A stretch of DNA of 64,000 bases. It comes from an uncultured Prevotellaceae bacterium. Its GTDB lineage: Bacteria > Bacteroidota > Bacteroidia > Bacteroidales > Bacteroidaceae. The notes under the pieces were generated by a model. That model saw only the letters and a program-made list of their open reading frames with translations. It was not told the DNA's origin and did no database searches. The DNA is taken from contig ONDA01000023.1 in assembly GCA_900316475.1 (NCBI GenBank), forward strand, positions 15,016 through 79,015. Reading direction: 5' to 3'. Numbering within the stretch: the first letter of the stretch is position 1; every line of letters begins with the position of its first letter. The translations under genes and the position numbers were made by a program. Positions 25,054 through 39,455 of the stretch are shown here, piece by piece.

Positions 25054-27159
25054 ATGGAACAGAAACAGTATAAACGGACGACCGTGACGTCGGCCCTGCC
25101 CTATGCCAACGGCGGGGTACATATCGGTCACCTGGCTGGCGTCTACGTGCCGGCAGATATCTATGTGCGCTATCTTCGTCTGAAGAAGCGCGAGGTTCTT
25201 TTCATCGGCGGCTCCGACGAGCATGGCGTACCCATCACCGTGCGTGCCCGCAAGGAGGGCATCACGCCGCAGGACGTTGTGGACCGCTACCACAAGATGA
25301 TTAAGGACTCGTTCGAGGAGTTCGGCATCTCGTTCGACATTTACAGCCGCACCACCTCGGAGACCCACCATAAGTTTGCTGCCGACTGGTTCCGCAAGCT
25401 CTATGACGAGGGCAAGCTCGTGGAAGAGACCACCGAGCAGCTCTACGACGAGGAAGCGAAGCAGTTTCTGGCCGACCGCTACGTCGTGGGCGAGTGCCCC
25501 CACTGCCACAGCGAAGGAGCCTACGGCGACCAGTGCGAGAAATGCGGCCGCGACCTCTCGCCCACGGAGCTGATAAACCCCCGGTCGACCATCAGCGGTT
25601 CGACACCCGTACTGAAGAAGACCAAGAACTGGTACTTGCCGCTGAACGAGTATCAGGACTGGTTGAAGCAGTGGATACTGGAGGAGCACAAGGAGTGGCG
25701 TCCGAATGTCTACGGCCAGTGCAAGTCGTGGCTCGACATGGACCTGCAGCCCCGCGCCATGACTCGCGACCTGGACTGGGGTATCCCCGTGCCCGTGGAA
25801 GGAGCCGACGGCAAGGTGCTCTACGTATGGTTCGACGCCCCCATCGGCTATGTGTCGAACACGGTAGAACTGTGTGAGAAGGAGCCAGAGAAATGGGGTG
25901 ACTGGCGCAAGTGGTGGCAGGACGAGGACACCCGTCTGGTACACTTCATCGGCAAGGACAACATCGTGTTCCACTGCATCATCTTCCCCACGATGATGAA
26001 GGCCTGGAACGACGCAAACAAGCTCTCCTCCCTCGGAGGGACCGGGAGAGGCTTCATCATGCCCGACAACGTGCCCGCCAACGAGTTCCTGAACCTGGAG
26101 AACGACAAGATTTCGACCTCAAGGAACTGGGCCGTCTGGCTGCACGAATACCTGGAGGACATGCCCGGCAAGCAGGACGTACTGCGCTACGTGCTGACCG
26201 CCAATGCCCCGGAAACGAAGGACAACAACTTCACGTGGAAGGATTTCCAAGACCGCAACAACAACGAGCTGGTGGCCGTCTATGGCAATTTTGTCAACCG
26301 TGCCCTGCAGCTGACGAAGAAATACTGGAACGGCGTCGTTCCCGCCTGCGGCGAACTGACCGACGTTGACCGTCAAGCCCTGGAGGAGTTCAAGGACGTG
26401 AAGGCCAAGGTGGAAAACCTGCTGGAGCAGTTCAAGTTCCGCGACGCACAGTTTGAGGCCATGAACCTGGCCCGCATCGGCAACAAGTACATCACCGACT
26501 GCGAGCCGTGGAAAGTGTGGAAGACCGACCCGAAGCGCTGCAAAACCATCCTGAACATCTGTCTGCAACTGACGGCCAACCTCGCTATTGCCTTCGAGCC
26601 GTTCCTGCCGTTCTCGAGTAAAAAACTCCGCGAGATGCTTAACATCGACAGCTTTGAGTGGGAGCAGCTGGGCAGCACCGACCTGTTGCAGGCTGGCCAC
26701 CAGTTAGGCGAGCCGCAGCTGCTGTTCGAGAAGATTGAGGACGACGTCATACAGAAGCAGCTCGACAAGCTGGAAGCCACCAAGAAAGCCAATGAGGCTG
26801 CCGCCTTCAAGCCTGCTGACATCAAGGAAACGGTTAGCTTCGAGGACTTTGAGAAGCTCGACATCCGTGTGGGCTTGGTGAAGGACTGCCAAAAGGTGAA
26901 GAAGTCGAAGAAGCTCCTGCAGTTCACCATCGATGACGGTTCAGGCACCGACCGCACCATCTGCTCGGGCATCGCCCAGTTCTACGACGACCCGTCGGCG
27001 CTCGTGGGCAAGCGCATCCTCTTCGTGGCCAACTTCGCGCCGCGCACGATGATGGGCATCGAGAGCCAGGGCATGATTCTCTCGGCCGTCGATGCCGACG
27101 AGAGCCTGAGCGTAGTCACCACGACGAAAGACGTCAAGCCCGGCTGTCAGGTGGGATGA
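25054..27159 (+). CDS. metG: Methionyl-tRNA synthetase with C-terminal tRNA-binding domain
   Basis: [38 protein letters not shown]. Confidence 0.98.
26020..26054. repeat. Palindromic repeat copy in frame in metG
   Basis: aagctctcctccctcggagggaccgggagaggctt; peptide [12 protein letters not shown]. Confidence 0.75.
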
Positions 27160-27199
27160 TCCGTTCTGACGGACAAGCGCTCTGAAAAGTCAGAAACGG

Positions 27200-28660
27200 A
27201 TGGACACATTGAAGGAGAAGACCGCTAAAGGTCTGTTCTGGGGTGGACTAAGCAACGTGTTGCAGCAGATGCTGAACCTTGTGTTTGGCATCTTTCTGGC
27301 ACGGTTGCTGAGCACTGAGGATTATGGTCTGGTGGGTATGCTCACCATCTTCTCCCTTGTGGCAAACTCATTGCAGGAGGGCGGGTTCATCTCAGCTCTG
27401 AACAGGCGGAAGGAGGCGAGTCACAAGGATTATAACGCCGTGTTCTGGACTTGCACGCTGACGAGCCTTCTCCTTTATGTCATTTTCGCTCTCTGTACCC
27501 CCCTTATAGCGCGCTTCTATCACGAGCCACGGCTTGTGCCCTTGGCGCGCTATATCTTTCTTGGCTTTTTCATCTCAAGTCTTGGCATTGCGCCACGGGC
27601 CATCCTCTTCCGGAACATGAAGGTTCGCGAGACGGCCATCGTGAACTTCGTCGGTCTTCTGCTGTCGGGAATCGTGGGGGTGTGTATGGCCGCAGCGGAC
27701 TTTGCCTACTGGGGCATAGCGACCCAGTCTCTTGTATATGTAGGCGTCACGACGGGTCTTAACTTCTGGTATGCCCGCTGGCATCCCACGCTGCCTGTGG
27801 ATTTCTCTCCGGTACGTGAGATGATAGGCTTCAGCAGCAAGCTGATAGTCACCAGTCTGGTGGTGATATTCAACACGAATATGTTTTCCGTCATTCTGGG
27901 ACGTAAATTCCCGGCCAGTGTGGTTGGCAATTACACACAAGCCAACAAGTGGAACAATATGGGGTGGTTGCTCATCAACAACATGCTCAGCGGCATAGCT
28001 CAGCCAGTACTGGCTAAAACCGACGACGAACCCGAACGCCAGAAACGTATCTTCAGGAAACTGCTGCGCTTTACCGCCTTTGTCAGTTTTCCCGCTATGC
28101 TTGGCCTGGCACTGGTGTCACACGAGTTTATTGTCATCCTGCTTGGCGAGAAGTGGCTTGACAGTGCCCTCATCCTTCAGTGGCTGTGCGTGATGGGTGC
28201 TTTCTACCCGCTATCCAACCTGTTTTCCTATTACATGGTCAGCCATGGCCAGTCTTCACGCTTCATGTGGTGTCACACCGCTTTAGGAGCGGTTCAGTTG
28301 GCGGCGGTCTTCGTCTCGGCGCCCTACGGGATGGGGATGATGATTAAGGTGTATGTAGGAATAGCTGTCGGCTGGTTTTGGGTGTGGTATCGGCTGTCGC
28401 GGAACTGGATAGGTCTTACGCTATATGAAGTGGTGAAGGACATTTCGCCCTATTTCTTCATTACTGTAGCATTGGTGTTTTCGGCGCAAGTCATTACGGA
28501 GCCCATAGCGAGCATTTACATCAGGTTTGCTGCCAAGGTGCTGTTTGTGGCATCGCTCTACGTTCTGGTACTGTGGCTCTTAGGTTCGGCCATATTCCGT
28601 GAGAGTCTCGATTTTTTCGAAAGCAAAGTAAAATTTCCTTTTAAAAAGCACGCACAATGA
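27200..28660 (+). CDS. Polysaccharide flippase (Wzx/PST family)
   Basis: LKEKTAKGLFWGG, LARLLSTEDYGL, multiple TM segments. Confidence 0.9.
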   Translation: MDTLKEKTAKGLFWGGLSNVLQQMLNLVFGIFLARLLSTEDYGLVGMLTIFSLVANSLQEGGFISALNRRKEASHKDYNAVFWTCTLTSLLLYVIFALCTPLIARFYHEPRLVPLARYIFLGFFISSLGIAPRAILFRNMKVRETAIVNFVGLLLSGIVGVCMAAADFAYWGIATQSLVYVGVTTGLNFWYARWHPTLPVDFSPVREMIGFSSKLIVTSLVVIFNTNMFSVILGRKFPASVVGNYTQANKWNNMGWLLINNMLSGIAQPVLAKTDDEPERQKRIFRKLLRFTAFVSFPAMLGLALVSHEFIVILLGEKWLDSALILQWLCVMGAFYPLSNLFSYYMVSHGQSSRFMWCHTALGAVQLAAVFVSAPYGMGMMIKVYVGIAVGWFWVWYRLSRNWIGLTLYEVVKDISPYFFITVALVFSAQVITEPIASIYIRFAAKVLFVASLYVLVLWLLGSAIFRESLDFFESKVKFPFKKHAQ

Positions 28661-29649
28661 GTTTGAATTTCTACCATAAGGCCCTAACGGCAGGACGTCG
28701 TATTTATACTAAATACTGGTACCCGAAGACATCGTTGCTCACCTTTGAGTCAGACCCTGACAGGGCTGGAGACAGAATCTACGAACTGCTGGCAAGTGGC
28801 AAACCTTGCATGATAGCCAGATACGGTGCCAACGAACTGACGACCGTGTTCAACTATTTGGGCATTACGGAACATCGGGGAGATGCATGGGGGTATATGA
28901 CGCGAAAGAATGGTCCCTGGTGGTGGAACAAGCACATATTGATGCAGATGAAGCATGTAGCAGGTTTCTTCCCCATAGACAATGAACATCTATACCGCTT
29001 TAGCGAGATGATGCTTGAAGACTCGCAGCAGGTAGACATCCTGGGAAGCTGGCTGAATGAAGAGATTGCCGTCAGCCATCTATTAAAGAATGCCTACAAG
29101 GTAGCCCTCCCCTGTTTAGAACCCTGGCTTGCCAAAAAGCCTTGGAGCAGGGCTTTGGAAGGCAGGAAGGTGCTTGTCGTTCATCCTTTTGATGAACTGA
29201 TACGCCGGCAATATGAAAAGCGGCGGTTGTTGTTCTCCGACAATGTGCTTCCTACTTTTAAAGAGCTCCATGTCATCAAAGCCGTACAAAGCTATGGGAA
29301 TAATAGTGAATCATGTGGATATGACGACTGGTTTTCTGCCTTACATTGGATGGAGCAAGAAATGGACAAGAGCGAGTACGACGTCTGCATATTAGGATGC
29401 GGAGCCTATGGTTTTCCGTTAGCAGCCTATGCCAAGCGCCAAGGTAAGCAGGCCATCCATCTTGGTGGCGTCAGCCAGTTGCTGTTTGGCATCACAGGCC
29501 ATCGCTGGCTTAATCCGATGCACGGTGTAGAGCGATGGGGACTGCCCAAGGGCTTCTACGTCAACCTGATGAACGAGCATTGGATAAGACCTGACGCCAC
29601 CACCAAACCCAAGGACTCCGACAAGGTGGAGGGGAACTGCTATTGGTGA
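28657..29649 (+). CDS. Conserved polysaccharide-locus protein, possibly a glycosyltransferase
   Basis: ILGCGAYGFPLAAYAKRQGKQAIHLGG motif; coupled to wzx. Confidence 0.6.
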   Translation: MSLNFYHKALTAGRRIYTKYWYPKTSLLTFESDPDRAGDRIYELLASGKPCMIARYGANELTTVFNYLGITEHRGDAWGYMTRKNGPWWWNKHILMQMKHVAGFFPIDNEHLYRFSEMMLEDSQQVDILGSWLNEEIAVSHLLKNAYKVALPCLEPWLAKKPWSRALEGRKVLVVHPFDELIRRQYEKRRLLFSDNVLPTFKELHVIKAVQSYGNNSESCGYDDWFSALHWMEQEMDKSEYDVCILGCGAYGFPLAAYAKRQGKQAIHLGGVSQLLFGITGHRWLNPMHGVERWGLPKGFYVNLMNEHWIRPDATTKPKDSDKVEGNCYW

Positions 29650-29656
29650 GGGCTGC

Positions 29657-30751
29657 TTATCCCCTTCCGAAGAGCCACTTCTTGAAGAACGGACTGACGC
29701 GCAGGATGTTCGACGCTATGATGCTGAAGCCGATGACGATGAGGGCTATCAGTAGTGAGAGTGTAGTGTCAATGGCGAAATTGTGGCGATACTGGTTGAA
29801 GTAGGTGCCGATGGTAGGCAGGTTGGGCATGAAAAGGAAGTGGATGAGATAGATGTCGAGCGTGCGTCGGCCGATATACTGCAAGCTGGCGCCGATGACC
29901 GTCCGCTGCGTAAAGTACTGGTGGTAGTGGCGGAAGTACATAAAGACTATCGTCAACAGCGAGATGCGTGCCAACGTCAGTGGTATGACGGCCCAGGCAG
30001 CGTGTAGCCAATGCCATTTCTGTGAGTCGAGCCAAGCATACATAGCCAGCATGACAAGTGCAGGATAGAACCACTTGGAGTCCATGAGGCGTTGAGCCTG
30101 GTCCCAGTAGCGGCGTACCACGTTGCCATAGACGAAATAAGGGAAGTACATGAAGAGCTGCCCGAAGCTGCTGTAGTTCATAAACTCGTTGCCCGGTCCC
30201 TTTCTTCCCTGTGCCCAGCTGAAGTATTGAGGCTGGTAGCAGGTGTCGTAGCAGACCAGCGAGATGACGAAGAGCACGGCTATGGGCAGCCACGAAGGCA
30301 TCTTCGGGAAATGCTTCTTCAGTAACTCCTCAACGTAGCAGAACAAGTAGTAGACGATGAACATATAAAGCAGCACGATGGTGAACCAGTAGCCGCCCTT
30401 CGTCGGCAGTGCTAACCATTTCAGTGTCGTGGGCAGAAAATAGCCGCCCAGGATAGCTACGCCAAAGAAGAAGAAAACGACGGTTGGTATGGTCTGCACC
30501 CTGATTTTCTTCAGCAGCAGACTTTTGAGCGTGCCCATATTCCACACCAGCCCTGCCTTGTAAGCCAGGAAACCACTGACGAAGAAGAACAGCGGCATAC
30601 GGAAAAGGACGAGGAAGCGCATTGAAGACGACAAATTGTGCTGCTCGGAGAATCCGATAAGTGCTACGTGATAGGCTACAACAAGAATCATCGTGAACCC
30701 TCTGAGAGCGTCCAACCATTCCAACCGGGGCTTCTTTGCTACTGTTTCCAT
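29657..30751 (-). CDS. Acyltransferase family 3 (OafA-like) membrane protein
   Basis: RLEWLDALRG, FRMPLFFFVSG, YWF, LDIYLIH; start reassigned to 30751. Confidence 0.9.
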   Translation of the reverse strand: METVAKKPRLEWLDALRGFTMILVVAYHVALIGFSEQHNLSSSMRFLVLFRMPLFFFVSGFLAYKAGLVWNMGTLKSLLLKKIRVQTIPTVVFFFFGVAILGGYFLPTTLKWLALPTKGGYWFTIVLLYMFIVYYLFCYVEELLKKHFPKMPSWLPIAVLFVISLVCYDTCYQPQYFSWAQGRKGPGNEFMNYSSFGQLFMYFPYFVYGNVVRRYWDQAQRLMDSKWFYPALVMLAMYAWLDSQKWHWLHAAWAVIPLTLARISLLTIVFMYFRHYHQYFTQRTVIGASLQYIGRRTLDIYLIHFLFMPNLPTIGTYFNQYRHNFAIDTTLSLLIALIVIGFSIIASNILRVSPFFKKWLFGRG

Positions 30752-30784
30752 ACGTATGTGTTCTGTTTTTAAGTTTTTTTGGTG

Positions 30785-30823
30785 CAAAGATACAAAATAT
30801 TTCATAATAAATTCATACCTTTG
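30785..30823. promoter_or_regulatory. Overlapping divergent -7 promoter boxes (30785-30792 minus; 30816-30823 plus)
   Basis: TATCTTTG and TACCTTTG both match TAnnTTTG. Confidence 0.65.
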
Positions 30824-30845
30824 CAGCAAAAATGCGAAAAAGCTC

Positions 30846-32012
30846 ATGGAGGATTTGAGAATAGCGCTTCTGAAGCAGGATGTCTATCAGGATTTGTACG
30901 TTTGTCCTGTCACCGAGAAATCGGCAGCCAACGTACTGTTCAGCTCAATGATGCGGGTGGGACCTATTGGTCTGGTGAGCGACCTGCGAGCCGACTTCTA
31001 TATTGTCAAGGAAGAGCCAGCCCCCGAAACGCAGATTTACAAAAAGGTAATCCCTCATATCGTCTGGATGCTGCCGCTGCTGAAGACGAAGCCGTTGAAC
31101 CAGGTGCCGGGCTATGAAAAATGGCAGTTGGAGACCGACCATGCCAATGGCGACTTCTCCGTCGACTGCCATGACGTAGACTGGGGGCAGTATGATGTCG
31201 TCATTTCCGTCAATGTCTGTCTGCCTACGGAGGTGGTGAAGCAGTACCCTAAGACCCTCTTTGCCTATATGATTGGTGAGGCAAATATGGCTATGGGCAA
31301 GGCACGCTTCGGCTACGACATCACGCTGAACCAAATGGCACGCGGTATAGTGGCCAACGGCTTAGGTGAGGTGGACTTCCCCTATACCTTCGTGGGGCGT
31401 GACACCCTGGAGCGCATCATTCATTCCAAGGTAAGACGCGCTTCGAAGCGCGATGGCGTGTTTGTGGAAATCAACTCCGTGGCCAAGGACCGTGATAAGG
31501 TGCCGCCTCAGTTCCTGCCTATTCAGGAAGCAGGCTACGCCATCCACCTGCACAAGCCGAAAATCAGTGACAACCTGATGACCATCTACGACTCAAAATA
31601 CTTCGTAAAGATTGGCGGACGCCCCATCCGTGGCAACTCCGTGGCAGAGGCCGTGTCGTTAGGTACATTGGCCATTATGAACCGCGACGAGGTGACCCAC
31701 GGCGAACTGATTATCGACGAGTGTAATGTCGGTACGTCAGAGGAAGTGCTTCAGCTGATGCGCCGCCTCGATGCCGACGACGCCCTTTACGAGCGTCTGT
31801 TGGAGAAGCAGAGGCAGGCGCTCCACCACCTGTTCTTCGAGACGCCCGTTGAGTCGCTGCGCAACTGTCTCAACATCAAGCGGCAGATGAAGCCACGGCG
31901 CTACAGCCTATGGGATAAACTTGGGGACCTCCTCTATCTGAAAGGCTGCGACGTCTACAACTTTCTGAAGGAGAAGAAGCGCTGGTTAAAAAGCTTGAAG
32001 AAGAACAAATAA
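30846..32012 (+). CDS. Hypothetical protein heading the phosphonate operon
   Basis: 388-aa ORF behind a -7 box; no family recognised; start reassigned to MEDLRI. Confidence 0.6.
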
Positions 32013-32031
32013 CAGTAAGAACAGAATATAT

Positions 32032-33339
32032 ATGGAAAAAGAAAAGATAGTTTACGTCGGCATGAGTGCCGACATCATACACCCGGGACATCTCAACATC
32101 CTGCATGAAGCCCAGAAATACGGACGCGTCATCGTGGGCGTACTGACCGACGCGGCCATTGCCAGCTACAAGCGGCTGCCCTACTTGAACTACGAACAGC
32201 GCTCGCTGATAGTCAGTGACCTGAAAGGCGTTTCAGAGGTGATACCCCAGACGACGCTTGACTACCGCCCGAATCTGGAGAAAATCAAACCAGACTACGT
32301 GGTTCACGGCGACGACTGGAAACAGGGTGTACAGGCAAAGACCCGTCAGCAGATTATCGAGAAGCTGGCGGAATGGGGCGGCAAGGTCATAGACGTGCCC
32401 TACACCAAAGGTATATCCTCGACGATGCTGAATGAGCGTCTGAAGGAAATCGGCACGACGCCCGACGTCCGTCTGAAGCGTCTCCGCCGGCTCATTGGTG
32501 CCAAGAAGATTGTGCGATTCTGCGAGTCGCACAGCGGACTGACAGGTCTGATTATCGAGAACACATCGGTGATGATTAACAATATGAAACACGAGTTCGA
32601 CGGTATGTGGGCCAGTTCGCTAACCGACTCGACGTCAAAAGGCAAGCCCGACATCGAGGCCGTTGACCTGACGACACGACTGCACGACCTGAACGACGCT
32701 TTGGAGGTGACCACCAAGCCCGTCATCTTCGACGGCGATACGGGGGGCAAGCCAGAACATCTGGCCTTTTCCGTGCGCACGCTGGAACGACTGGGCATCT
32801 CGGCGATTATCATCGAGGACAAAGTAGGACTGAAGAAGAACTCTCTCTTCGGCACGGAGGTGAAACAGGAACAAGACACCATAGAGGGTTTCTGCGAGAA
32901 AATACGTTCAGGCAAACGGGCACAGATAACCAGCGACTTCATGCTGATAGCCCGTATTGAGAGCCTCATTGCCGGCAAGGGCATTGACGATGCTATGGAG
33001 CGCGCCTTGGCCTATATCGAGGCAGGGGCCGACGGCATCATGATTCACAGCAAAGAACAGACGGGCGAGGACATCAAGGAGTTCTGCCAGCGATTGCGAG
33101 CTAAGAACGCCTCTGTGCCCATTGTGGTAGTGCCTACGACTTACAACCAGATTACCGAGGACGAACTGGCTTCTTGGGGCGTCAACGTCGTCATCTATGC
33201 CAACCACTTGCTGCGCGCTGCCTACCCGGCAATGGTACAGTGTGCCAAGTCTATTCTGGCCAACGGCCGCTCATACGAAGCCAACAGTCTATGTATGCCC
33301 ATCAAGGAAATCTTAGAACTTATTCCCGGCACGAAATGA
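32032..33339 (+). CDS. aepX: Phosphoenolpyruvate mutase with N-terminal cytidylyltransferase domain
   Basis: [10 protein letters not shown] matches the PEP mutase EDKxxxxxNS signature; N-term DIIHPGH (HxGH) TagD-like domain. Confidence 0.96.
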
Positions 33340-34463
33340 TACGTCCTTCATTCTTCTACGATACCCTGGCATCCAACGGCATAAACTTCTATGCCGGCGT
33401 GCCCGACTCCCTGTTGAAGCAACTCTGTGCCTACATCACAGACCATGCCGATGCCACGCATAACATTATCGCTGCCAACGAGGGCGGTGCACTGGGTGTG
33501 GCCGCAGGGCACTATCTGGCCACGCGCCAGATTCCCGTCGTCTATATGCAGAACTCAGGCGAGGGAAACATCATTAACCCGCTGGCGTCGCTGACCGACA
33601 AGGATGTGTACAACATTCCCGTCCTGCTGCTGATAGGCTGGCGCGGACGTCCCGGCGTACACGACGAGCCGCAGCACGTGAAACAGGGGAAGGTGACGCT
33701 GACACTGCTGGAGACGATGGGCGTCAGGTATGAGGTGCTTAGCAAGGACGAGGTTCAGGCGGCAGCGCAGGTCAAGGCGGCCGTCGACTATATGCACGAG
33801 ACAGGTGAGGTTTTTGCGCTGGTCGTTGAAAAGGACACGTTCGATAGCTATGCGCTACAGAATGTCGTGATTAACTACTTGACGATGACACGTGAAGACG
33901 CCATTCAGACCGTGGCGGCGGCATTAGCCCCACGGGACGTGATAGTGTCAACAACGGGCATGATCAGCCGCGAACTCTTCGAATACCGTACGGCGAAAGG
34001 CGAAGGTCACGAGCGCGACTTCCTGACAGTTGGCTCCATGGGGCACGCCAGTCAGATAGCATTGGGTATCGCTATGGAGAAGCCAGAGCGCCGCGTTTGG
34101 TGCTTCGACGGCGACGGTGCTGCCATTATGCACATGGGCGGTTTGGCTATCGTGGCCAGCAAGCGCCCTCGGAATTATGTTCACGTCGTCTTTAATAATG
34201 GTGCTCACGACTCTGTTGGCGGCCAGCCAACGGTAGGTCTCGACATCGACTTGCCCGCCATAGCCAAGGCCGTGGGCTATGCCCATGCCTATAGCGTCAG
34301 TACACTGGAGGAACTGACGGCACGGTTGGACGACGTAAAGCAACAGGCAGGGCCGATGCTGCTACAGGTGTGTGTGAAGAAGGGCAACCGCAAGGATTTG
34401 GGCCGTCCCACGACCACGCCTGTACAGAACAAGGAAGCCCTGATGGATTTTTTGGAGGACTGA
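33336..34463 (+). CDS. aepY: Phosphonopyruvate decarboxylase
   Basis: [47 protein letters not shown]; ATGA overlap with aepX. Confidence 0.95.
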
Positions 34464-34464
34464 T

Positions 34465-35571
34465 ATGGCACAACAGATTTTGAACGGTATAGAGCACCTG
34501 AACGGCGTAGTGGCAGACAGCAGGAAGGTTATGCTGGTTTGCGACGGCTCATTCCCGTTCCTCAGTATTAAAACGGCCGTCGAGAGCATAGGCGTGCCTT
34601 TTGTCAAGTTCGACCAGTTTACTCCCAATCCGCTGTACGAGGACGTCTGTAAGGGTGTTGAACTGTTCAATCAAGAGCAGTGTGACACCATTCTCGCCGT
34701 TGGAGGCGGAAGTACTATCGACGTGGCAAAGTGTATCAAGCTGTATTGCCGGATGCCGGCAGACAAGCTTTTCCTGGAACAAGAATACCACGACACGGGC
34801 GTGCAGCTCATTGCTATTCCTACCACAGCCGGCACGGGCAGTGAGTCGACCCGCTTCGCCGTAATATATTATGGTGGAAAGAAACAAAGTGTGACGCATG
34901 AGAGCATCATACCCAACGTGGCCATCTTGGAACCACAGGTGCTGAAGACGCTGCCGGTCTATCAGAAAAAGTGTACGATGATGGATGCCTTATGTCAAGG
35001 CATAGAGTCGTGGTGGTCGGTGAACAGTACGGACGAAAGCAGATGTCTTTCGGAAAAAGCCGTGACAACCATTATGCACTGGTGGCGCGACTACATCTTC
35101 GATAATTCCGATGAGGCTGCCCGGCAAGTGATGGCCGCAGCCAACCTGGCCGGCCGTGCCATCTGTATCACGCAGACGACGGCGCCCCACGCTTTCAGCT
35201 ATAAGATTACGTCGCTCTACAAATTGCCACACGGCCATGCCGTAGCAGTCTGTTTACCAGAAATCTGGCAGTATATGCAGAGTCATCCCGACCGTTGTAT
35301 CGACCGTCGGGGAACCGGCTATCTACAGGCTACTTTCAAAGAAATAGCACAGGCTATGCAGGTAGCCGACGTTCCGTCGGCCATCGGCTGTTTCCGCGAA
35401 ATGATGAAAGTGCTGGGCCTGCAGAATCCTGTGTCGTCGGAAAAGCGGGATGAAGAATTACACACGCTGAGCACTTCCGTCAACCCTATCCGTCTGCGTA
35501 ACAACCCCGTAGAACTCGACGCAGAGGCCATCATGGGATTGTACCATACCATCATTGACAAACCGCTATGA
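34465..35571 (+). CDS. Iron-containing alcohol dehydrogenase, probable phosphonoacetaldehyde reductase
   Basis: AVGGGSTIDVAK, IPTTAGTGSE, PHAFSY, PHGHAVA; directly after aepY. Confidence 0.85.
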   Translation: MAQQILNGIEHLNGVVADSRKVMLVCDGSFPFLSIKTAVESIGVPFVKFDQFTPNPLYEDVCKGVELFNQEQCDTILAVGGGSTIDVAKCIKLYCRMPADKLFLEQEYHDTGVQLIAIPTTAGTGSESTRFAVIYYGGKKQSVTHESIIPNVAILEPQVLKTLPVYQKKCTMMDALCQGIESWWSVNSTDESRCLSEKAVTTIMHWWRDYIFDNSDEAARQVMAAANLAGRAICITQTTAPHAFSYKITSLYKLPHGHAVAVCLPEIWQYMQSHPDRCIDRRGTGYLQATFKEIAQAMQVADVPSAIGCFREMMKVLGLQNPVSSEKRDEELHTLSTSVNPIRLRNNPVELDAEAIMGLYHTIIDKPL

Positions 35572-36506
35572 ACAGTATTAAAGAGAAGATAACCATGCCG
35601 CTTGACGATAGCTTCCTTCAGGAAGAGGTCAGGTGCGAGTATACAGTGTCGTCAAGGCAGAAACGGATATGGGCCATTGAGATGGATCTGCTTTACCAGT
35701 TGCTGGCGGTATGCAAGAAGCACGACATCAAGGTCTTTGCCTTTGCCGGTACATTATTGGGAGCCGTCAGGCACCGTGGCTTTATTCCCTGGGATGACGA
35801 CATTGACGTGTGTATGACGCGGCCGGAGTTTGAGAAGCTTCGTGCCATAGCCGCCACAGAGTTCCGCCATCCGTATTTCCTACAGACGGATTTGTCTGAC
35901 AGACGCTACTTCTGTCAGGGCTATGCCCGCTTGCGAAACTCGTTGACAACGGGGCACATCCTGGCTCACGAGTCGCCAGACTACAATCACGGCATTTATA
36001 TTGACGTCTTTGTGATGGACGGCTATGTGGATGGCGCAGCGTTCAAGCGCCAGATGCTGGTTAAGGATACCCTCGTCAGTCTGGTGTCACTATACCGCCC
36101 TAAACAGCAGAACAATCTGTTGCGGCGCCTGTATCGTAGCGTGATGGCCCATACGTTCTGCAAACTGGTACCCTACGAGACCGTGGTAGGCTGGTATGAC
36201 AAGAACCTCAGGAAGTATAGTGCTACCGCTAAGCGGCTGACGATTCTGACACATCCTATGTATTTCATCACACGCTACTGGTGTGAGGCTGCCGATTTGG
36301 ACGAGACGGTCTATCTGCCTTTCGAGAACATGACGGTTCCTGTTCCGGCAAACTACGACAAGGTGCTGAGAAACATATATGGCGACTATATGGCCTTCCC
36401 GCCTGTTGAGGAGCGGGGCAAATGGCATTCCAATGACATTTACTTCGACCCCGATATGGCTTATACCGATTATTTCAAACAGAAAAAGGATTCATGGCGG
36501 AAGTGA
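35568..36506 (+). CDS. LicD family phosphotransferase
   Basis: GTLLGAVRHRGFIPWDDDIDV, IYIDVF, YGDYM. Confidence 0.92.
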   Translation: MNSIKEKITMPLDDSFLQEEVRCEYTVSSRQKRIWAIEMDLLYQLLAVCKKHDIKVFAFAGTLLGAVRHRGFIPWDDDIDVCMTRPEFEKLRAIAATEFRHPYFLQTDLSDRRYFCQGYARLRNSLTTGHILAHESPDYNHGIYIDVFVMDGYVDGAAFKRQMLVKDTLVSLVSLYRPKQQNNLLRRLYRSVMAHTFCKLVPYETVVGWYDKNLRKYSATAKRLTILTHPMYFITRYWCEAADLDETVYLPFENMTVPVPANYDKVLRNIYGDYMAFPPVEERGKWHSNDIYFDPDMAYTDYFKQKKDSWRK

Positions 36507-37330
36507 CGAAGACAGCCGTCTTACTGACGGTGTTCAACAGGAGAGAGATGACGCTTGTCAGCCTGCGCACATTGTATGCAGCCATCGACAGGTTAGGTCC
36601 GGGCTATGCGTTTGATGTCTATCTGGTAGACGACGGTTCTACGGACGGGACGTCTGAAAGCGTGGGTAGTGAGTTCCCGGCTGTCAGACTGTTCAAGGGT
36701 GATGGCGGTCTCTATTGGGGACATGGTATGCTGATGGCGTGGGAGAAGGCTGTTGAGTCGGGTGTCGGCTACGACTATTTCCTCTGGTATAATGATGATT
36801 CCGAGTTGTACCCCGATGCCTTACAGACGCTATTCAAGTCGATGGATGACAATGGCGAACGCTGCGTCGTGACGGGCGCCTTCTGTGACCATCAGGGTTG
36901 CTGTTCATACGGCGGCGGGGATGAAAACAACAAGGGGTTAGTCCCGGATGGCAGTTATCAGAAGGTGGTGACGATGAACGGCAACTTGGTGCTTATCCCC
37001 TATCAGGTCTACAAGGCCGTAGGAATGATTGACCGAGGGTATCGTCATGCGTTCGGTGACCATGATTACGGTTACAGAGTCCAGAAGCAGGGCTTCAGTG
37101 TGCTGTTGACGCCTCGCTACGTGGGCGTGGTTGACAATCATACCGAAACACCTTACTCTGGTATTGCGAGTTTTAAGAAGCGGTGGAAGAACTTGCATAG
37201 CCCGAAGAACTCGCCCCGCTATGGTTTCCGCTATCTGCGGACTTACAAAGGTTGGAACAGCGCTTTACGCTATTGGATCAGTTCCTACCTATACACATTT
37301 TTCCCCTCTCTTGCACCAAAGCGAAACTAA
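36494..37330 (+). CDS. Glycosyltransferase family 2
   Basis: LLTVFNR, VDDGSTDGT, LWYNDD, GDHDYG. Confidence 0.88.
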   Translation: MAEVTKTAVLLTVFNRREMTLVSLRTLYAAIDRLGPGYAFDVYLVDDGSTDGTSESVGSEFPAVRLFKGDGGLYWGHGMLMAWEKAVESGVGYDYFLWYNDDSELYPDALQTLFKSMDDNGERCVVTGAFCDHQGCCSYGGGDENNKGLVPDGSYQKVVTMNGNLVLIPYQVYKAVGMIDRGYRHAFGDHDYGYRVQKQGFSVLLTPRYVGVVDNHTETPYSGIASFKKRWKNLHSPKNSPRYGFRYLRTYKGWNSALRYWISSYLYTFFPSLAPKRN

Positions 37331-37343
37331 TAAAAAAGGAAAC

Positions 37344-38366
37344 ATGAAAAAAGCAGCTCAAGTTGATATCGCAGTATTGATGTTGTTCTTCACCCGTTCT
37401 GATACGTTTCAGCAGGTATTCGACGAAGTAAGGAAGGCGCGCCCCTCGCGGTTGTTCCTCTTTCAGGACGGTCCCCGTGGCGAGCGCGATATGGCGGGTA
37501 TAGAAGCCTGCCGACAGATTGCCAGCGACGAGAACATCGACTGGGAGTGTGAGGTACACCGAAACTATCAGGAGCGTAACTTAGGCTGTATGATAGCTGG
37601 ATATACGTCCCATCAGTGGGCTTTCTCGCTGGCCGACAAGTGTATGGTGCTTGAGGACGACGTGGTACCGTCGCAGTCGTTCTTCCCGTTCTGTAAGGAG
37701 ATGCTCGACCGCTACGAGCACGACGAGCGCATCTCGATGGTGGCGGGCTTCAACGTCGACGAGGTGACGCCCGACATTCCCTACGACTACTTCTTCACTT
37801 CTGCCTTCAGCATCTGGGGCTGGGCGTCGTGGCGCAGGGTTGTTAAACAATGGGATAAGGATTACACATTCCTTGACGATGCGTTCAGTATGCGACAGCT
37901 TGAGGCGCTCATCAAGCAGCGCGGCTATAGGAAGAGCTTTGTCAAAATGTGTCGCGACCATCGCGAGACAGGACACCCTCAATTCGAGAGCGTCTTCTGG
38001 GCGACGATGCTGTTCAATTCGGCCATGGCCATTGTGCCCTGTAAGAATATGATTAATAATGTAGGTGCCTCGGAGGACTCTACACACTATTCGGCCTTCC
38101 GCACCTTACCCCGTCGCCTAAAGCAGCTGTTTACTATGAAACGCTATGACATCGATTTCCCTCTGCGTCATCCACGGTACGTGATTGAGGAAGTGGGCTA
38201 TTGGAAGCGCTTCTATAAGGCTCAGGGCTGGGGCCATCCACTGACGAAGGTCGGACGCTCCTTCGAAGAACTGGTTCTGAATATCCGCTACGGCAACTGG
38301 TCGTTCATCATGAATTCTGTCAAGCGGCGTGTCCGAAAATGGAGGGGCGTGGAGAAGTTTGGATAA
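37344..38366 (+). CDS. GT-A fold glycosyltransferase-like protein
   Basis: LFQDGPR, NLGC, MVLEDDVVP, WGWASW; start reassigned to 37344. Confidence 0.7.
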   Translation: MKKAAQVDIAVLMLFFTRSDTFQQVFDEVRKARPSRLFLFQDGPRGERDMAGIEACRQIASDENIDWECEVHRNYQERNLGCMIAGYTSHQWAFSLADKCMVLEDDVVPSQSFFPFCKEMLDRYEHDERISMVAGFNVDEVTPDIPYDYFFTSAFSIWGWASWRRVVKQWDKDYTFLDDAFSMRQLEALIKQRGYRKSFVKMCRDHRETGHPQFESVFWATMLFNSAMAIVPCKNMINNVGASEDSTHYSAFRTLPRRLKQLFTMKRYDIDFPLRHPRYVIEEVGYWKRFYKAQGWGHPLTKVGRSFEELVLNIRYGNWSFIMNSVKRRVRKWRGVEKFG

Positions 38367-38405: not shown

Positions 38406-39455
38406 TCACGAAAGATGTTGTAAGAGTTCCTTCAATTCTTCAACGCTTTTCCCCAATTTTGCTGAAATAGCCTCTAACGACAATCCATTATCCTGCATTA
38501 TCTGAATAGAATAGCCTAATAGTTTTTGCTGTTCACTCAGCTGGACCTGCTGTTCACTCAGCTGGACCTGCTGTTCACTCAGCTGGACCTGCTGTTCACT
38601 CAGTTGGACTTGCTGTTCACTCAGCTGGACCTGCTGTTCACTCAGTTGGACTTGCTGTTCACTCAGCTGGACCTGCTGTTCAGCGAGTTTGCGGTCACGA
38701 AGCATAATTTCCGTGTCACGTTTCTCAATGGCTGCGAAATATTCGTCTTCGACATTCATATCCTGACGTACGTCGGCATCAGTAGAAGCCATTAACAGGC
38801 GGTGGACGATGTGTTTCATATCGGCATCGTCCTCGTACAGACTATCATCAAGTGTCAGTACTTGCTGACTTTCCTTGCTCTTATGCGTCTGGTCAAAGAT
38901 GCTCAGAACTTTGTCCAACCGAGTATTCACCTGACCGTGCAGACGGGGAATCTGCACAATGATACTGTCATGCGTTAGGCTGTCTACAAACGGATTTGGA
39001 ATTCCTTTGGTGACGGGATGTCCTTCATAGTCATAGGCTTTATGCTGTACGTACAACACTGGTTCCTCAATATCTCCTACTCTGTGACCTAACAGGTATA
39101 TTGCCACCATAGGCAAGGCAAAACTATCCCGATTTGCTCCTACGATGTTTTTGGGATTCTGATACTGCGTACCCAAATATTGGCGGAAGCGAAGCGTTTC
39201 TGTCTCAAGCCACGTCTTCTGCAGTTCCACAAGAATCAGTTGCTCTGAACCGTCACTGTTTCGTACGGTGGCTCCAAAGTCAATGCGGAACACGGAAAGC
39301 GTGTCACGTTGCGTATTTGAGTATTCGTGAGGGCGAATTTCAACACGAACGATGTCCATCTTCAAAAGAGCCGACAAGATTGTGCGGGCAATGCGCTCGT
39401 CCTCCATGAGATACTTGAATACGATGTCGTAAATCGGGTTCGCTATATTAACCAT
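38406..39455 (-). CDS. Rpn/PD-(D/E)XK-like protein with C-terminal heptad repeat
   Basis: IANPIYDIVFKYLM, RIDF..ILVELQK, RFRQYLG; start reassigned to 39455. Confidence 0.65.
   Translation of the reverse strand: MVNIANPIYDIVFKYLMEDERIARTILSALLKMDIVRVEIRPHEYSNTQRDTLSVFRIDFGATVRNSDGSEQLILVELQKTWLETETLRFRQYLGTQYQNPKNIVGANRDSFALPMVAIYLLGHRVGDIEEPVLYVQHKAYDYEGHPVTKGIPNPFVDSLTHDSIIVQIPRLHGQVNTRLDKVLSIFDQTHKSKESQQVLTLDDSLYEDDADMKHIVHRLLMASTDADVRQDMNVEDEYFAAIEKRDTEIMLRDRKLAEQQVQLSEQQVQLSEQQVQLSEQQVQLSEQQVQLSEQQVQLSEQQVQLSEQQKLLGYSIQIMQDNGLSLEAISAKLGKSVEELKELLQHLS
38527..38686. repeat. 21-bp VNTR (7 full units plus a partial) encoding LSEQQVQ
   Basis: tgctgttcactcagctggacc units with few variants. 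Confidence 0.95.

Follow-up and report, generated by a model that had tools for sequence, protein, structure and literature searches.

A predicted hydroxyethylphosphonate module in a probable protein O-glycosylation locus of a rumen Prevotella

A glycan locus at positions 27200-38366 of a 64,000-nucleotide window, the whole stretch of DNA analysed here, is predicted to encode the synthesis, activation and transfer of a phosphonate. The window corresponds to C60:15016-79015 of a rumen Prevotella metagenome-assembled genome (MAG; G000; assembly 3.29 Mb, 91% complete). We read the locus, with a probability of roughly 0.55, as an LFG-type O-glycosylation locus into whose variable outer-glycan part a five-gene phosphonate module has been inserted. 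The phosphonate would be 2-hydroxyethylphosphonate (HEP), and its target is most likely the outer part of the general protein O-glycan. The sequence of the MAG directly shows the gene identities, the fusion, the operon coupling, the lack of an AEP (2-aminoethylphosphonate) transaminase and the architecture of the locus, whereas every enzymatic specificity and the protein target are inferred.

In the proposed scheme, the mutase domain of a cytidylyltransferase-phosphoenolpyruvate (PEP) mutase fusion would convert PEP to phosphonopyruvate, phosphonopyruvate decarboxylase (Ppd) would convert this to phosphonoacetaldehyde, and an Fe-type alcohol dehydrogenase (Fe-ADH) would turn the aldehyde into HEP. 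The fused cytidylyltransferase domain, which is Fom1-like, would activate HEP to CMP-HEP, and a LicD-family enzyme, with CMP-HEP as its donor, would place the HEP-phosphonyl group on a sugar hydroxyl of an undecaprenyl-linked oligosaccharide assembled by the neighbouring glycosyltransferases (GTs). An O-glycosylation-type Wzx would then flip the oligosaccharide, which would be joined to the core glycan on serine or threonine residues of many envelope proteins. The genes concerned, mapped from an open reading frame (ORF) listing and Pfam and NCBIfam profile scans of the window, are as follows.

25054-27159, plus strand: metG (methionine--tRNA ligase), conserved first gene of LFG-type loci; NF001100, 857 bits
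27200-28660, plus strand: Wzx flippase, probably of the O-glycosylation type; NF058658 Oglyco_Wzx, 662 bits
30846-32012, plus strand: 388-amino-acid LFG-associated protein, probably a GT-B-like glycosyltransferase; no Pfam or NCBIfam match
32032-33339, plus strand: bifunctional cytidylyltransferase-PEP mutase (Ppm), Fom1-like; PF01467 and PF13714; TIGR02320, 410 bits
33336-34463, plus strand: Ppd; TIGR03297, 514 bits
34465-35571, plus strand: Fe-ADH family protein, predicted phosphonoacetaldehyde reductase (PhpC/FomC type, EC 1.1.1.309); PF00465 and PF25137
35568-36506, plus strand: LicD-family phosphotransferase; PF04991, 132 bits
36494-37330, plus strand: GT2 glycosyltransferase; PF00535, 45.9 bits
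37344-38366, plus strand: GT-A-like glycosyltransferase, last gene; homology to the antepenultimate conserved GT of canonical LFG loci

Genes of the predicted module are tightly packed. The Ppd ATG overlaps the Ppm stop codon and the LicD start overlaps the ADH stop (ATGA in both cases), the ADH gene starts 1 nt past the Ppd stop, and LicD and GT2 overlap by 13 nt; with such overlapping or 1-nt junctions, Ppm-Ppd-ADH-LicD-GT2 is therefore treated as one translationally coupled unit. The true starts of Ppd and of the last GT are internal to longer listed ORFs, and every ORF of the locus is accounted for. An earlier note on this DNA had listed wzx, GT-like genes, an acyltransferase, Ppm, Ppd, Fe-ADH, LicD and two GTs in an operon free of aminotransferases. 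All of these genes are present and the locus contains no aminotransferase, but the note had missed the cytidylyltransferase domain on the mutase, the minus strand of the acyltransferase gene, the metG flank and the O-glycosylation type of the Wzx.

Predicted synthesis and activation of the phosphonate

The mutase domain scored 410 bits against TIGR02320 (cut-off 319.55) and carries the EDKXXXXXNS motif, and Ppd matched TIGR03297 over its full length (profile positions 1-360) at 514 bits (cut-off 312.5). The N-terminal domain of the mutase protein is a PF01467 cytidylyltransferase (55.5 bits) that keeps the HPGH and ISST motifs, and residues 5-140 of the fusion are 62% identical to the cytidylyltransferase domain of Fom1 (PDB 5X3D; E = 2e-56). 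The genome encodes one Ppm and only two PF01467 genes, the fused mutase and one other. In a tree of cytidylyltransferase domains, transaminase-linked loci form one clade (support 100/98), outside which fall Fom1 and the ADH-linked loci, including the locus described here. The single entry scored as ADH-linked within that clade (L030) was a false positive. Cytidylylation of HEP by Fom1 is cited in PMC6697681, and the domain described here would quite probably activate HEP to CMP-HEP in the same manner. Some Bacillota and Bacteroidales loci encode triple NTP_transf_3-cytidylyltransferase-Ppm fusions of 668-690 amino acids (listed alongside: L074, L075 and L080).

Phosphonate pathways branch after phosphonoacetaldehyde, proceeding through either a 2-aminoethylphosphonate (AEP) transaminase or a PhpC-type Fe-ADH (PMC8942020). 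A genome search for aepZ, suggested by the earlier note, found no AepZ/PhnW-type gene anywhere in the 91%-complete assembly (best score 39.5 bits versus a cut-off of 360.8; Bacteroides thetaiotaomicron was a positive control), and three weak class-V aminotransferase matches scored 26-40 bits (cut-off 361). We retrieved 80 loci encoding relatives of the fused mutase and clustered their ORFs: Fe-ADH stands beside Ppm/Ppd in 39/80 loci, a PntC-AEP-transaminase fusion takes its place in 24/80, and the two occur together in 0/80. The ADH matches PF00465 (124 bits), has the NAD(P) motif GGGS (AVGGGSTIDVAK) and retains aspartate and two histidines as metal ligands; its second ligand is glutamine, as is the case for about half of the 39 ADHs linked to Ppm. 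A search for homologues of the ADH gave no hits with informative names. Its best PDB match is 6jko, identical in sequence to 6jkp, a sulfoacetaldehyde reductase used as the reference structure for PhpC, and PhpC-type enzymes reportedly diverge widely (PMC13576164). The curated phosphonate-ADH model TIGR03405 is its top NCBIfam match, at 146 bits versus a cut-off of 423.7; because unrelated Fe-ADH families reach similar scores, the assignment draws on genomic context instead of family membership.

The absence of an AEP transaminase, the mutual exclusivity of ADH and transaminase, the retained ADH motif and ligands and the relation to 6jko favour the HEP route, and the phosphonate made is very probably HEP rather than AEP. 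The preference for HEP expressed in the earlier note thus holds and is now stronger, the cytidylyltransferase grouping with Fom1 being a further point in its favour. The locus contains no radical-SAM or other Fom3-like tailoring gene. HEPD and MpnS need O2 and are hence unlikely in a rumen anaerobe. Some Bacilli MAGs encode a Ppm-linked ADH of about 605 amino acids with an N-terminal NTP_transf_3 (PntC-like) domain (L054:12438-14255, L059:4443-6254 and L066:3096-4922).

Candidate transfer by LicD

The LicD-family protein has a DDDID motif of the acidic DxD type at residue 76 and is the only LicD encoded in its genome. Considering its overlap with the ADH stop, its single copy and the presence of just one other PF01467 gene, the simplest reading makes CMP-HEP the donor used by LicD, which would yield a phosphonate ester, sugar-O-P(O)(O-)-CH2CH2OH. 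Transfer of the HEP-phosphonyl group to a glycan by LicD is, on these sequence features, a reasonably probable outcome. The order ADH-LicD-GT2 is repeated on metagenome contig L099, and the homologues of this LicD in other Ppm loci share only 23-32% identity with it. LicD is present in 210/301 genomes of the family; it lies 2-7 kb from Ppm in at least 10 of the 31 Ppm-positive family genomes, and at least 10 family genomes, among them 5/6 same-genus genomes examined, have it no more than about 7 kb from an Oglyco_Wzx gene.

A second gene of possible relevance to nucleotide-activated alcohols lies on contig C73 of the same genome (C73:45924-47852, minus strand). It encodes a 642-amino-acid fusion of an N-terminal Fe-ADH and a C-terminal NTP_transf_3/LicC-like nucleotidyltransferase, and is flanked by a PfkB-type kinase gene and an acyl-ACP thioesterase-like gene.

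Locus type and probable acceptor

LFG loci of Bacteroidota comprise metG, a wzx flippase gene, variable GT genes and two conserved GT genes, the last of BF4306 type (PMC12871550, PMC8698959). The order metG then wzx is found here, with wzx starting 40 nt past metG, and metG is 68-77% identical to the wzx-adjacent metG of canonical loci L091-L095 and L085, canonical loci being taken from genomes with a Wzx above the Oglyco_Wzx cut-off. The Wzx scored 662 bits against NF058658 (Oglyco_Wzx; cut-off 720), with the next family at 174, and shares 49-53% identity with its counterparts in canonical metG-wzx loci. This model matches mostly one gene per genome in 238/301 family genomes and, among 14 controls, only B. 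thetaiotaomicron; 16/16 same-genus genomes match it at E <= 1e-186, with listed scores of about 640-667 bits. The other wzx of the genome, on contig C37, was rejected as an alternative O-glycosylation locus, because it reaches only 348 bits on Oglyco_Wzx and lies in an ordinary polysaccharide locus.

No polymerase (Wzy) gene is present in the locus, since only wzx and the acyltransferase gene encode membrane segments, and ORF and profile scans detected no ligase or export genes there. The last two genes are not the conserved GT4 and BF4306-type GT2 fucosyltransferase of canonical loci, of which L091, L092 and L093 have the order metG-wzx-...-GT-A-like-GT4-GT2. The genome encodes orthologues of this terminal GT4 (55% identity) and BF4306-like GT2 (49%) as an adjacent pair at C60:6273-8302, beyond the window and 32 kb upstream of metG, and the YfhO-like protein that flanks the canonical locus has a 59% orthologue on contig C57. 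With these orthologues elsewhere in the genome, we therefore consider the system present and its LFG split.

The combination of metG, an O-glycosylation-type Wzx and GTs with no polymerase argues for an oligosaccharide on proteins as the product. The locus is thus probably the outer-glycan locus of the Bacteroidota general protein O-glycosylation system and not a capsule locus; proteins as the acceptor are favoured, if by less than the preceding biochemical steps. A capsule or polysaccharide reading, which the earlier note had adopted in predicting a phosphatase-resistant coat, was rejected on the absence of polymerase and export genes, the metG linkage and the Wzx type; that part of the note is probably wrong, and its support is therefore partial, confined to the HEP core. 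The locus also differs from the Wzy-dependent AEP capsule locus of the Bacteroides fragilis PS B type (aepX-aepY-aepZ): here the genome lacks an AepZ/PhnW gene, and no membrane protein encoded in the locus resembles a polymerase. Phosphatase resistance, as predicted in the note, is speculative, for the C-P bond is stable but the ester joining the phosphonate to the sugar may not be.

A variable segment between two conserved genes

Homologues of the 388-amino-acid protein (54-63% identity) occur in 16/300 family genomes, and lie 2-4 kb downstream of the Oglyco_Wzx gene in 8/8 cases with both coordinates. Its AlphaFold2 model is poor (pLDDT 55) and the best Foldseek hits are weak matches to GT-B enzymes (E = 1.5e-3 and weaker), as judged from which it is probably a GT-B-like glycosyltransferase. 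The last GT has an EDD motif and 52-55% identical homologues in L007 and L089; a PDB sequence search gave no match. It is also related, at 22-25% identity (E = 1e-10 to 1e-16), to the protein encoded just before the GT4-GT2 pair in L091, L092 and L093, and the L091 homologue matches PF00535 and GNT-I. Both the 388-amino-acid gene and the last GT gene, then, have homologues inside canonical metG-wzx...GT4-GT2 loci.

The segment between the 388-amino-acid and GT-A-like genes varies by genome. In L094 the two genes are adjacent. In L091 (L091:6847-10393, genome G067) the segment encodes a fusion of NTP_transf_3 and a class I/II aminotransferase, an ornithine-cyclodeaminase (OCD)/mu-crystallin protein and LicD. 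Homologues of this fusion and of LicD lie next to the GT-A-like gene at L089:10227-13875, a locus in which no homologue of the 388-amino-acid gene or the OCD protein was detected. Here the segment consists of cytidylyltransferase-Ppm, Ppd, ADH, LicD and GT2. The O-glycan of Prevotella intermedia carries HexNAc-phosphate-alditol on 224 proteins (PMC10897501). In view of the variation at this position and of the P. intermedia phosphodiester head group, we read the module, by analogy, as a replacement head-group cassette that would place HEP where relatives place a phosphate-linked alcohol. A broader extension is tentative and falls somewhat short of even odds: that the general O-glycan of this organism and of at least one sister species carries a HEP ester, so that hundreds of proteins of the periplasm and outer membrane would be phosphonoglycoproteins, and that LFG loci have a swappable 'LicD slot'.

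Relation to known systems

The module resembles the start of the fosfomycin pathway of Streptomyces wedmorensis, which has Fom1 (cytidylyltransferase-PEP mutase), Fom2 (Ppd) and FomC (Fe-ADH), the same fusion and the same predicted CMP-HEP. Unlike that pathway, the locus lacks Fom3/Fom4 tailoring genes and has LicD and GTs in their place, so CMP-HEP would serve as a glycan-decoration donor and not as an antibiotic intermediate. In the Pnt pathway, Ppm, Ppd, an AEP transaminase and the PntC cytidylyltransferase act with a LicD-like transferase (Rice et al. 2019, PMC6697681). The shared logic is a CMP-activated phosphonate passed to a LicD-like enzyme for cell-surface glycans; the locus described here differs in encoding an ADH and not a transaminase, a PF01467 domain and not the assayed PF12804 PntC, and in its predicted phosphonate, HEP and not AEP. 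Ppm-nucleotidyltransferase fusions have been catalogued, with PF01467 fusions accounting for 23.6% of Ppm proteins (PMC6697681), and HEP-type neighbourhoods make up 8.5% of ppm clusters (PMC6697681, PMC8942020).

On the glycosylation side, the locus shares with the LFG of B. fragilis and Tannerella forsythia a metG gene, a Wzx probably of the O-glycosylation type, variable GTs, the lack of a polymerase and two genes common to canonical loci, but differs in its GT4 and BF4306-type GT2, which are detached 32 kb upstream, and in its phosphonate module. The P. intermedia O-glycan has a phosphodiester-linked head group of the sort that a LicD-type transferase would be expected to produce; in that glycan it is a sugar alcohol phosphate, with no genes assigned, whereas a HEP phosphonate ester is predicted here. 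HEP is also esterified to glycans in the phosphonoglycans of Glycomyces sp. and Stackebrandtia nassauensis (Yu et al. 2014, as cited in PMC8942020), which are, however, actinomycete exopolysaccharides. In Prochlorococcus SB, phosphonate in the protein fraction led to a proposal of phosphonylated O-glycoproteins (PMC8931226), a marine hypothesis without a defined glycosylation system, whereas the module described here lies in a genetically defined O-glycosylation locus. A literature search returned no paper linking phosphonate to a Bacteroidota O-glycan, to such an LFG locus or to Prevotella. Ppm-cytidylyltransferase fusions, LicD-type Pnt logic, HEP neighbourhoods and HEP phosphonoglycans are already published; the placement in an O-glycosylation locus is new.

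Most known phosphonates of bacterial surfaces are AEP on capsules and lipids, HEP esters come from a few actinomycete exopolysaccharides and marine dissolved organic matter, and phosphonylated glycoproteins have so far only been postulated. Bacteroidota O-glycosylation modifies hundreds of proteins with one species-specific glycan, the chemical range of which is poorly mapped. If our reading is correct, this system would gain a new type of modification, in which many envelope proteins may bear a C-P group, and the locus would represent the first genetically defined route to bacterial phosphonoglycoproteins. It would also supply a defined candidate phosphonate donor for LicD-type enzymes and a concrete mass shift, +107.998 Da (C2H5O3P), to seek in rumen and gut glycoproteomics, and would suggest that phospho-head-group modules are swapped as cassettes at one locus position. 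The module also bears on phosphorus cycling in the rumen, and many unrelated taxa there have the cassette in common.

Distribution and origin

The Ppm-Ppd-ADH triad occurs across Bacteroidota, Spirochaetota, Bacillota and Pseudomonadota, for the most part in MAGs from rumen and gut, and is also present in a cultured Bacteroidota strain, Capnocytophaga cynodegmi DSM 19736 (L022). On other Prevotella-type contigs the genes around the triad, which encode pyruvyl transferases and an EpsG polymerase, are those of classical polysaccharide loci. Ppm was found in 31/301 family genomes and in 0/16 same-genus genomes sampled, and the 388-amino-acid gene was likewise found in 0/16 of these, which suggests that the whole variable block has been exchanged. 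Among the 12/31 Ppm-positive genomes with readable Oglyco_Wzx coordinates, Ppm is close to Oglyco_Wzx only here. In a comparison of loci L085-L095, the Wzx is nearer to those of other genera (49-53% identity) than to those of same-genus genomes (40-42%). The variable block was therefore probably gained by exchange, despite a GC content equal to the genome mean (locus 0.526, genome 0.529), which gives no sign of recent transfer.

Close relatives of the locus were found in other MAGs. L005, a second Prevotella MAG of this species, from roe-deer reticulum, encodes a 100% identical fused mutase and neighbouring proteins with 97-100% identity. A single locus of L007 (Prevotella sp. Tb.RUG.330, rumen) encodes cytidylyltransferase-Ppm, ADH and LicD together with an Oglyco_Wzx that scores 604 bits and a homologue 52% identical to the last GT. 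Its fused Ppm (92% identical) is directly followed by ADH with no Ppd between them (L007:10001-12415), and no Ppd was found anywhere in this 2.8-Mb MAG, which points to decay of the module or else to gaps in the MAG. In L006 the module adjoins rplM. L030 was rejected as a second metG-linked phosphonate locus: a 950-amino-acid minus-strand gene, and no wzx, lies between its metG and Ppm, and its apparent ADH is an unrelated gene upstream of metG.

Weighing of alternative readings

Several observations weigh against a HEP module in an O-glycosylation locus. LicD enzymes are not known to accept a CMP-phosphonate, and the C73 fusion might make another nucleotide-activated alcohol that could feed the single LicD. 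The ADH falls far below the cut-off of the sole phosphonate-ADH model, at about the score of unrelated Fe-ADH families, and one ligand of its canonical metal set (Asp, His, His, His) is replaced by glutamine. Cytidylyltransferase domains 49-58% identical to Fom1 also occur in AEP-type clusters, and L007 without Ppd implies that such modules can decay. The Wzx is below the NCBIfam cut-off (662 versus 720), the BF4306-type GT that defines Bacteroides LFG loci is absent from the end of the locus and lies 32 kb away, metG is not beside wzx in 5/6 same-genus genomes examined, and the host genome is a MAG that is 91% complete.

These points give room to readings that keep part of the scheme. HEP could be made and activated while the glycan goes to another acceptor, such as a lipooligosaccharide, a glycolipid or a short surface oligosaccharide, as the distant terminal GT, the sub-threshold Wzx, the lack of general metG adjacency in the genus and the triad in classical polysaccharide loci of other Prevotella-type contigs would allow. 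We regard this as unlikely, given that the locus has no polymerase, ligase or export genes, that two of its genes are specific to Oglyco_Wzx loci and that its Wzx is the only high-scoring Oglyco_Wzx of the genome. It is quite unlikely that LicD moves a different head group (alditol phosphate or another CDP-activated alcohol) and that the phosphonate ends in a phosphonolipid or small molecule. LicD is indeed common in related O-glycosylation loci without Ppm, its homologues in other Ppm loci are distant, and the genome has the fusion beside a PfkB kinase on C73; yet the coupling of LicD to ADH, the recurrence of this order on L099, the single LicD, the proximity of Ppm and LicD in family genomes and the lack of any lipid-synthesis or Fom3-like tailoring gene in the locus all speak against this reading.

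AEP as the product, made by an unassembled or unrelated transaminase, is very unlikely. Such an enzyme might lie in the 9% of the genome that is missing or among the three weak class-V matches, but those matches are far below the cut-off, transaminase and ADH never share a locus among the 80, the cytidylyltransferase lies outside the transaminase-linked clade, and a transaminase would face competition for the aldehyde from an ADH whose translation is coupled to that of Ppd. Least credible, and highly improbable in our estimate, is a silent or decaying module that leaves the glycan unaltered: Ppd has been lost genome-wide in the close relative L007, but the module described here has five intact frames with catalytic motifs and tight coupling, and proteins with 98-100% identity are present in L005.

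Other features of the locus

Three further features complete the map.

28657-29649, plus strand: GT-D-fold-like protein; PF22882, E = 1e-5, a weak match below cut-off
29657-30847, likely start 30805, minus strand: acyltransferase_3 membrane protein, probable sugar O-acyltransferase; PF01757, 82.6 bits
30816-30823, plus strand: candidate promoter motif TAccTTTG; match to the Bacteroides -7 motif

The start of the GT-D-like gene overlaps the wzx stop (ATGA), and a 47% homologue of its product is encoded beside wzx both in the same-genus locus L085 and in the C37 locus of the same genome. The acyltransferase has 7 hydrophobic segments, and homologues with 73-75% identity adjoin the Ppm gene in L006 and L007. 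The candidate motif TAccTTTG, read from the sequence, lies 22 nt 5' of the ATG of the 388-amino-acid gene and was compared with what we take to be the Bacteroides -7 promoter consensus; a sigma-70 promoter and terminator scan performed no better on the locus than on shuffled sequence. An imperfect hairpin at 27161-27199 (CCGTTCTGAC ... GTCAGAAACGG), with no T-run after it, takes up the 40 nt that separate the end of metG from the wzx start codon.

On the 3' side of the last GT lies an unrelated PD-(D/E)XK/Rpn-like gene (38406-39455, minus strand), followed by rplM. This PD-(D/E)XK/Rpn-like gene was not detected in L005; it has a 72% paralogue on contig C46 of the same genome, and its product carries seven tandem QQVQLSE repeats near the C-terminus.

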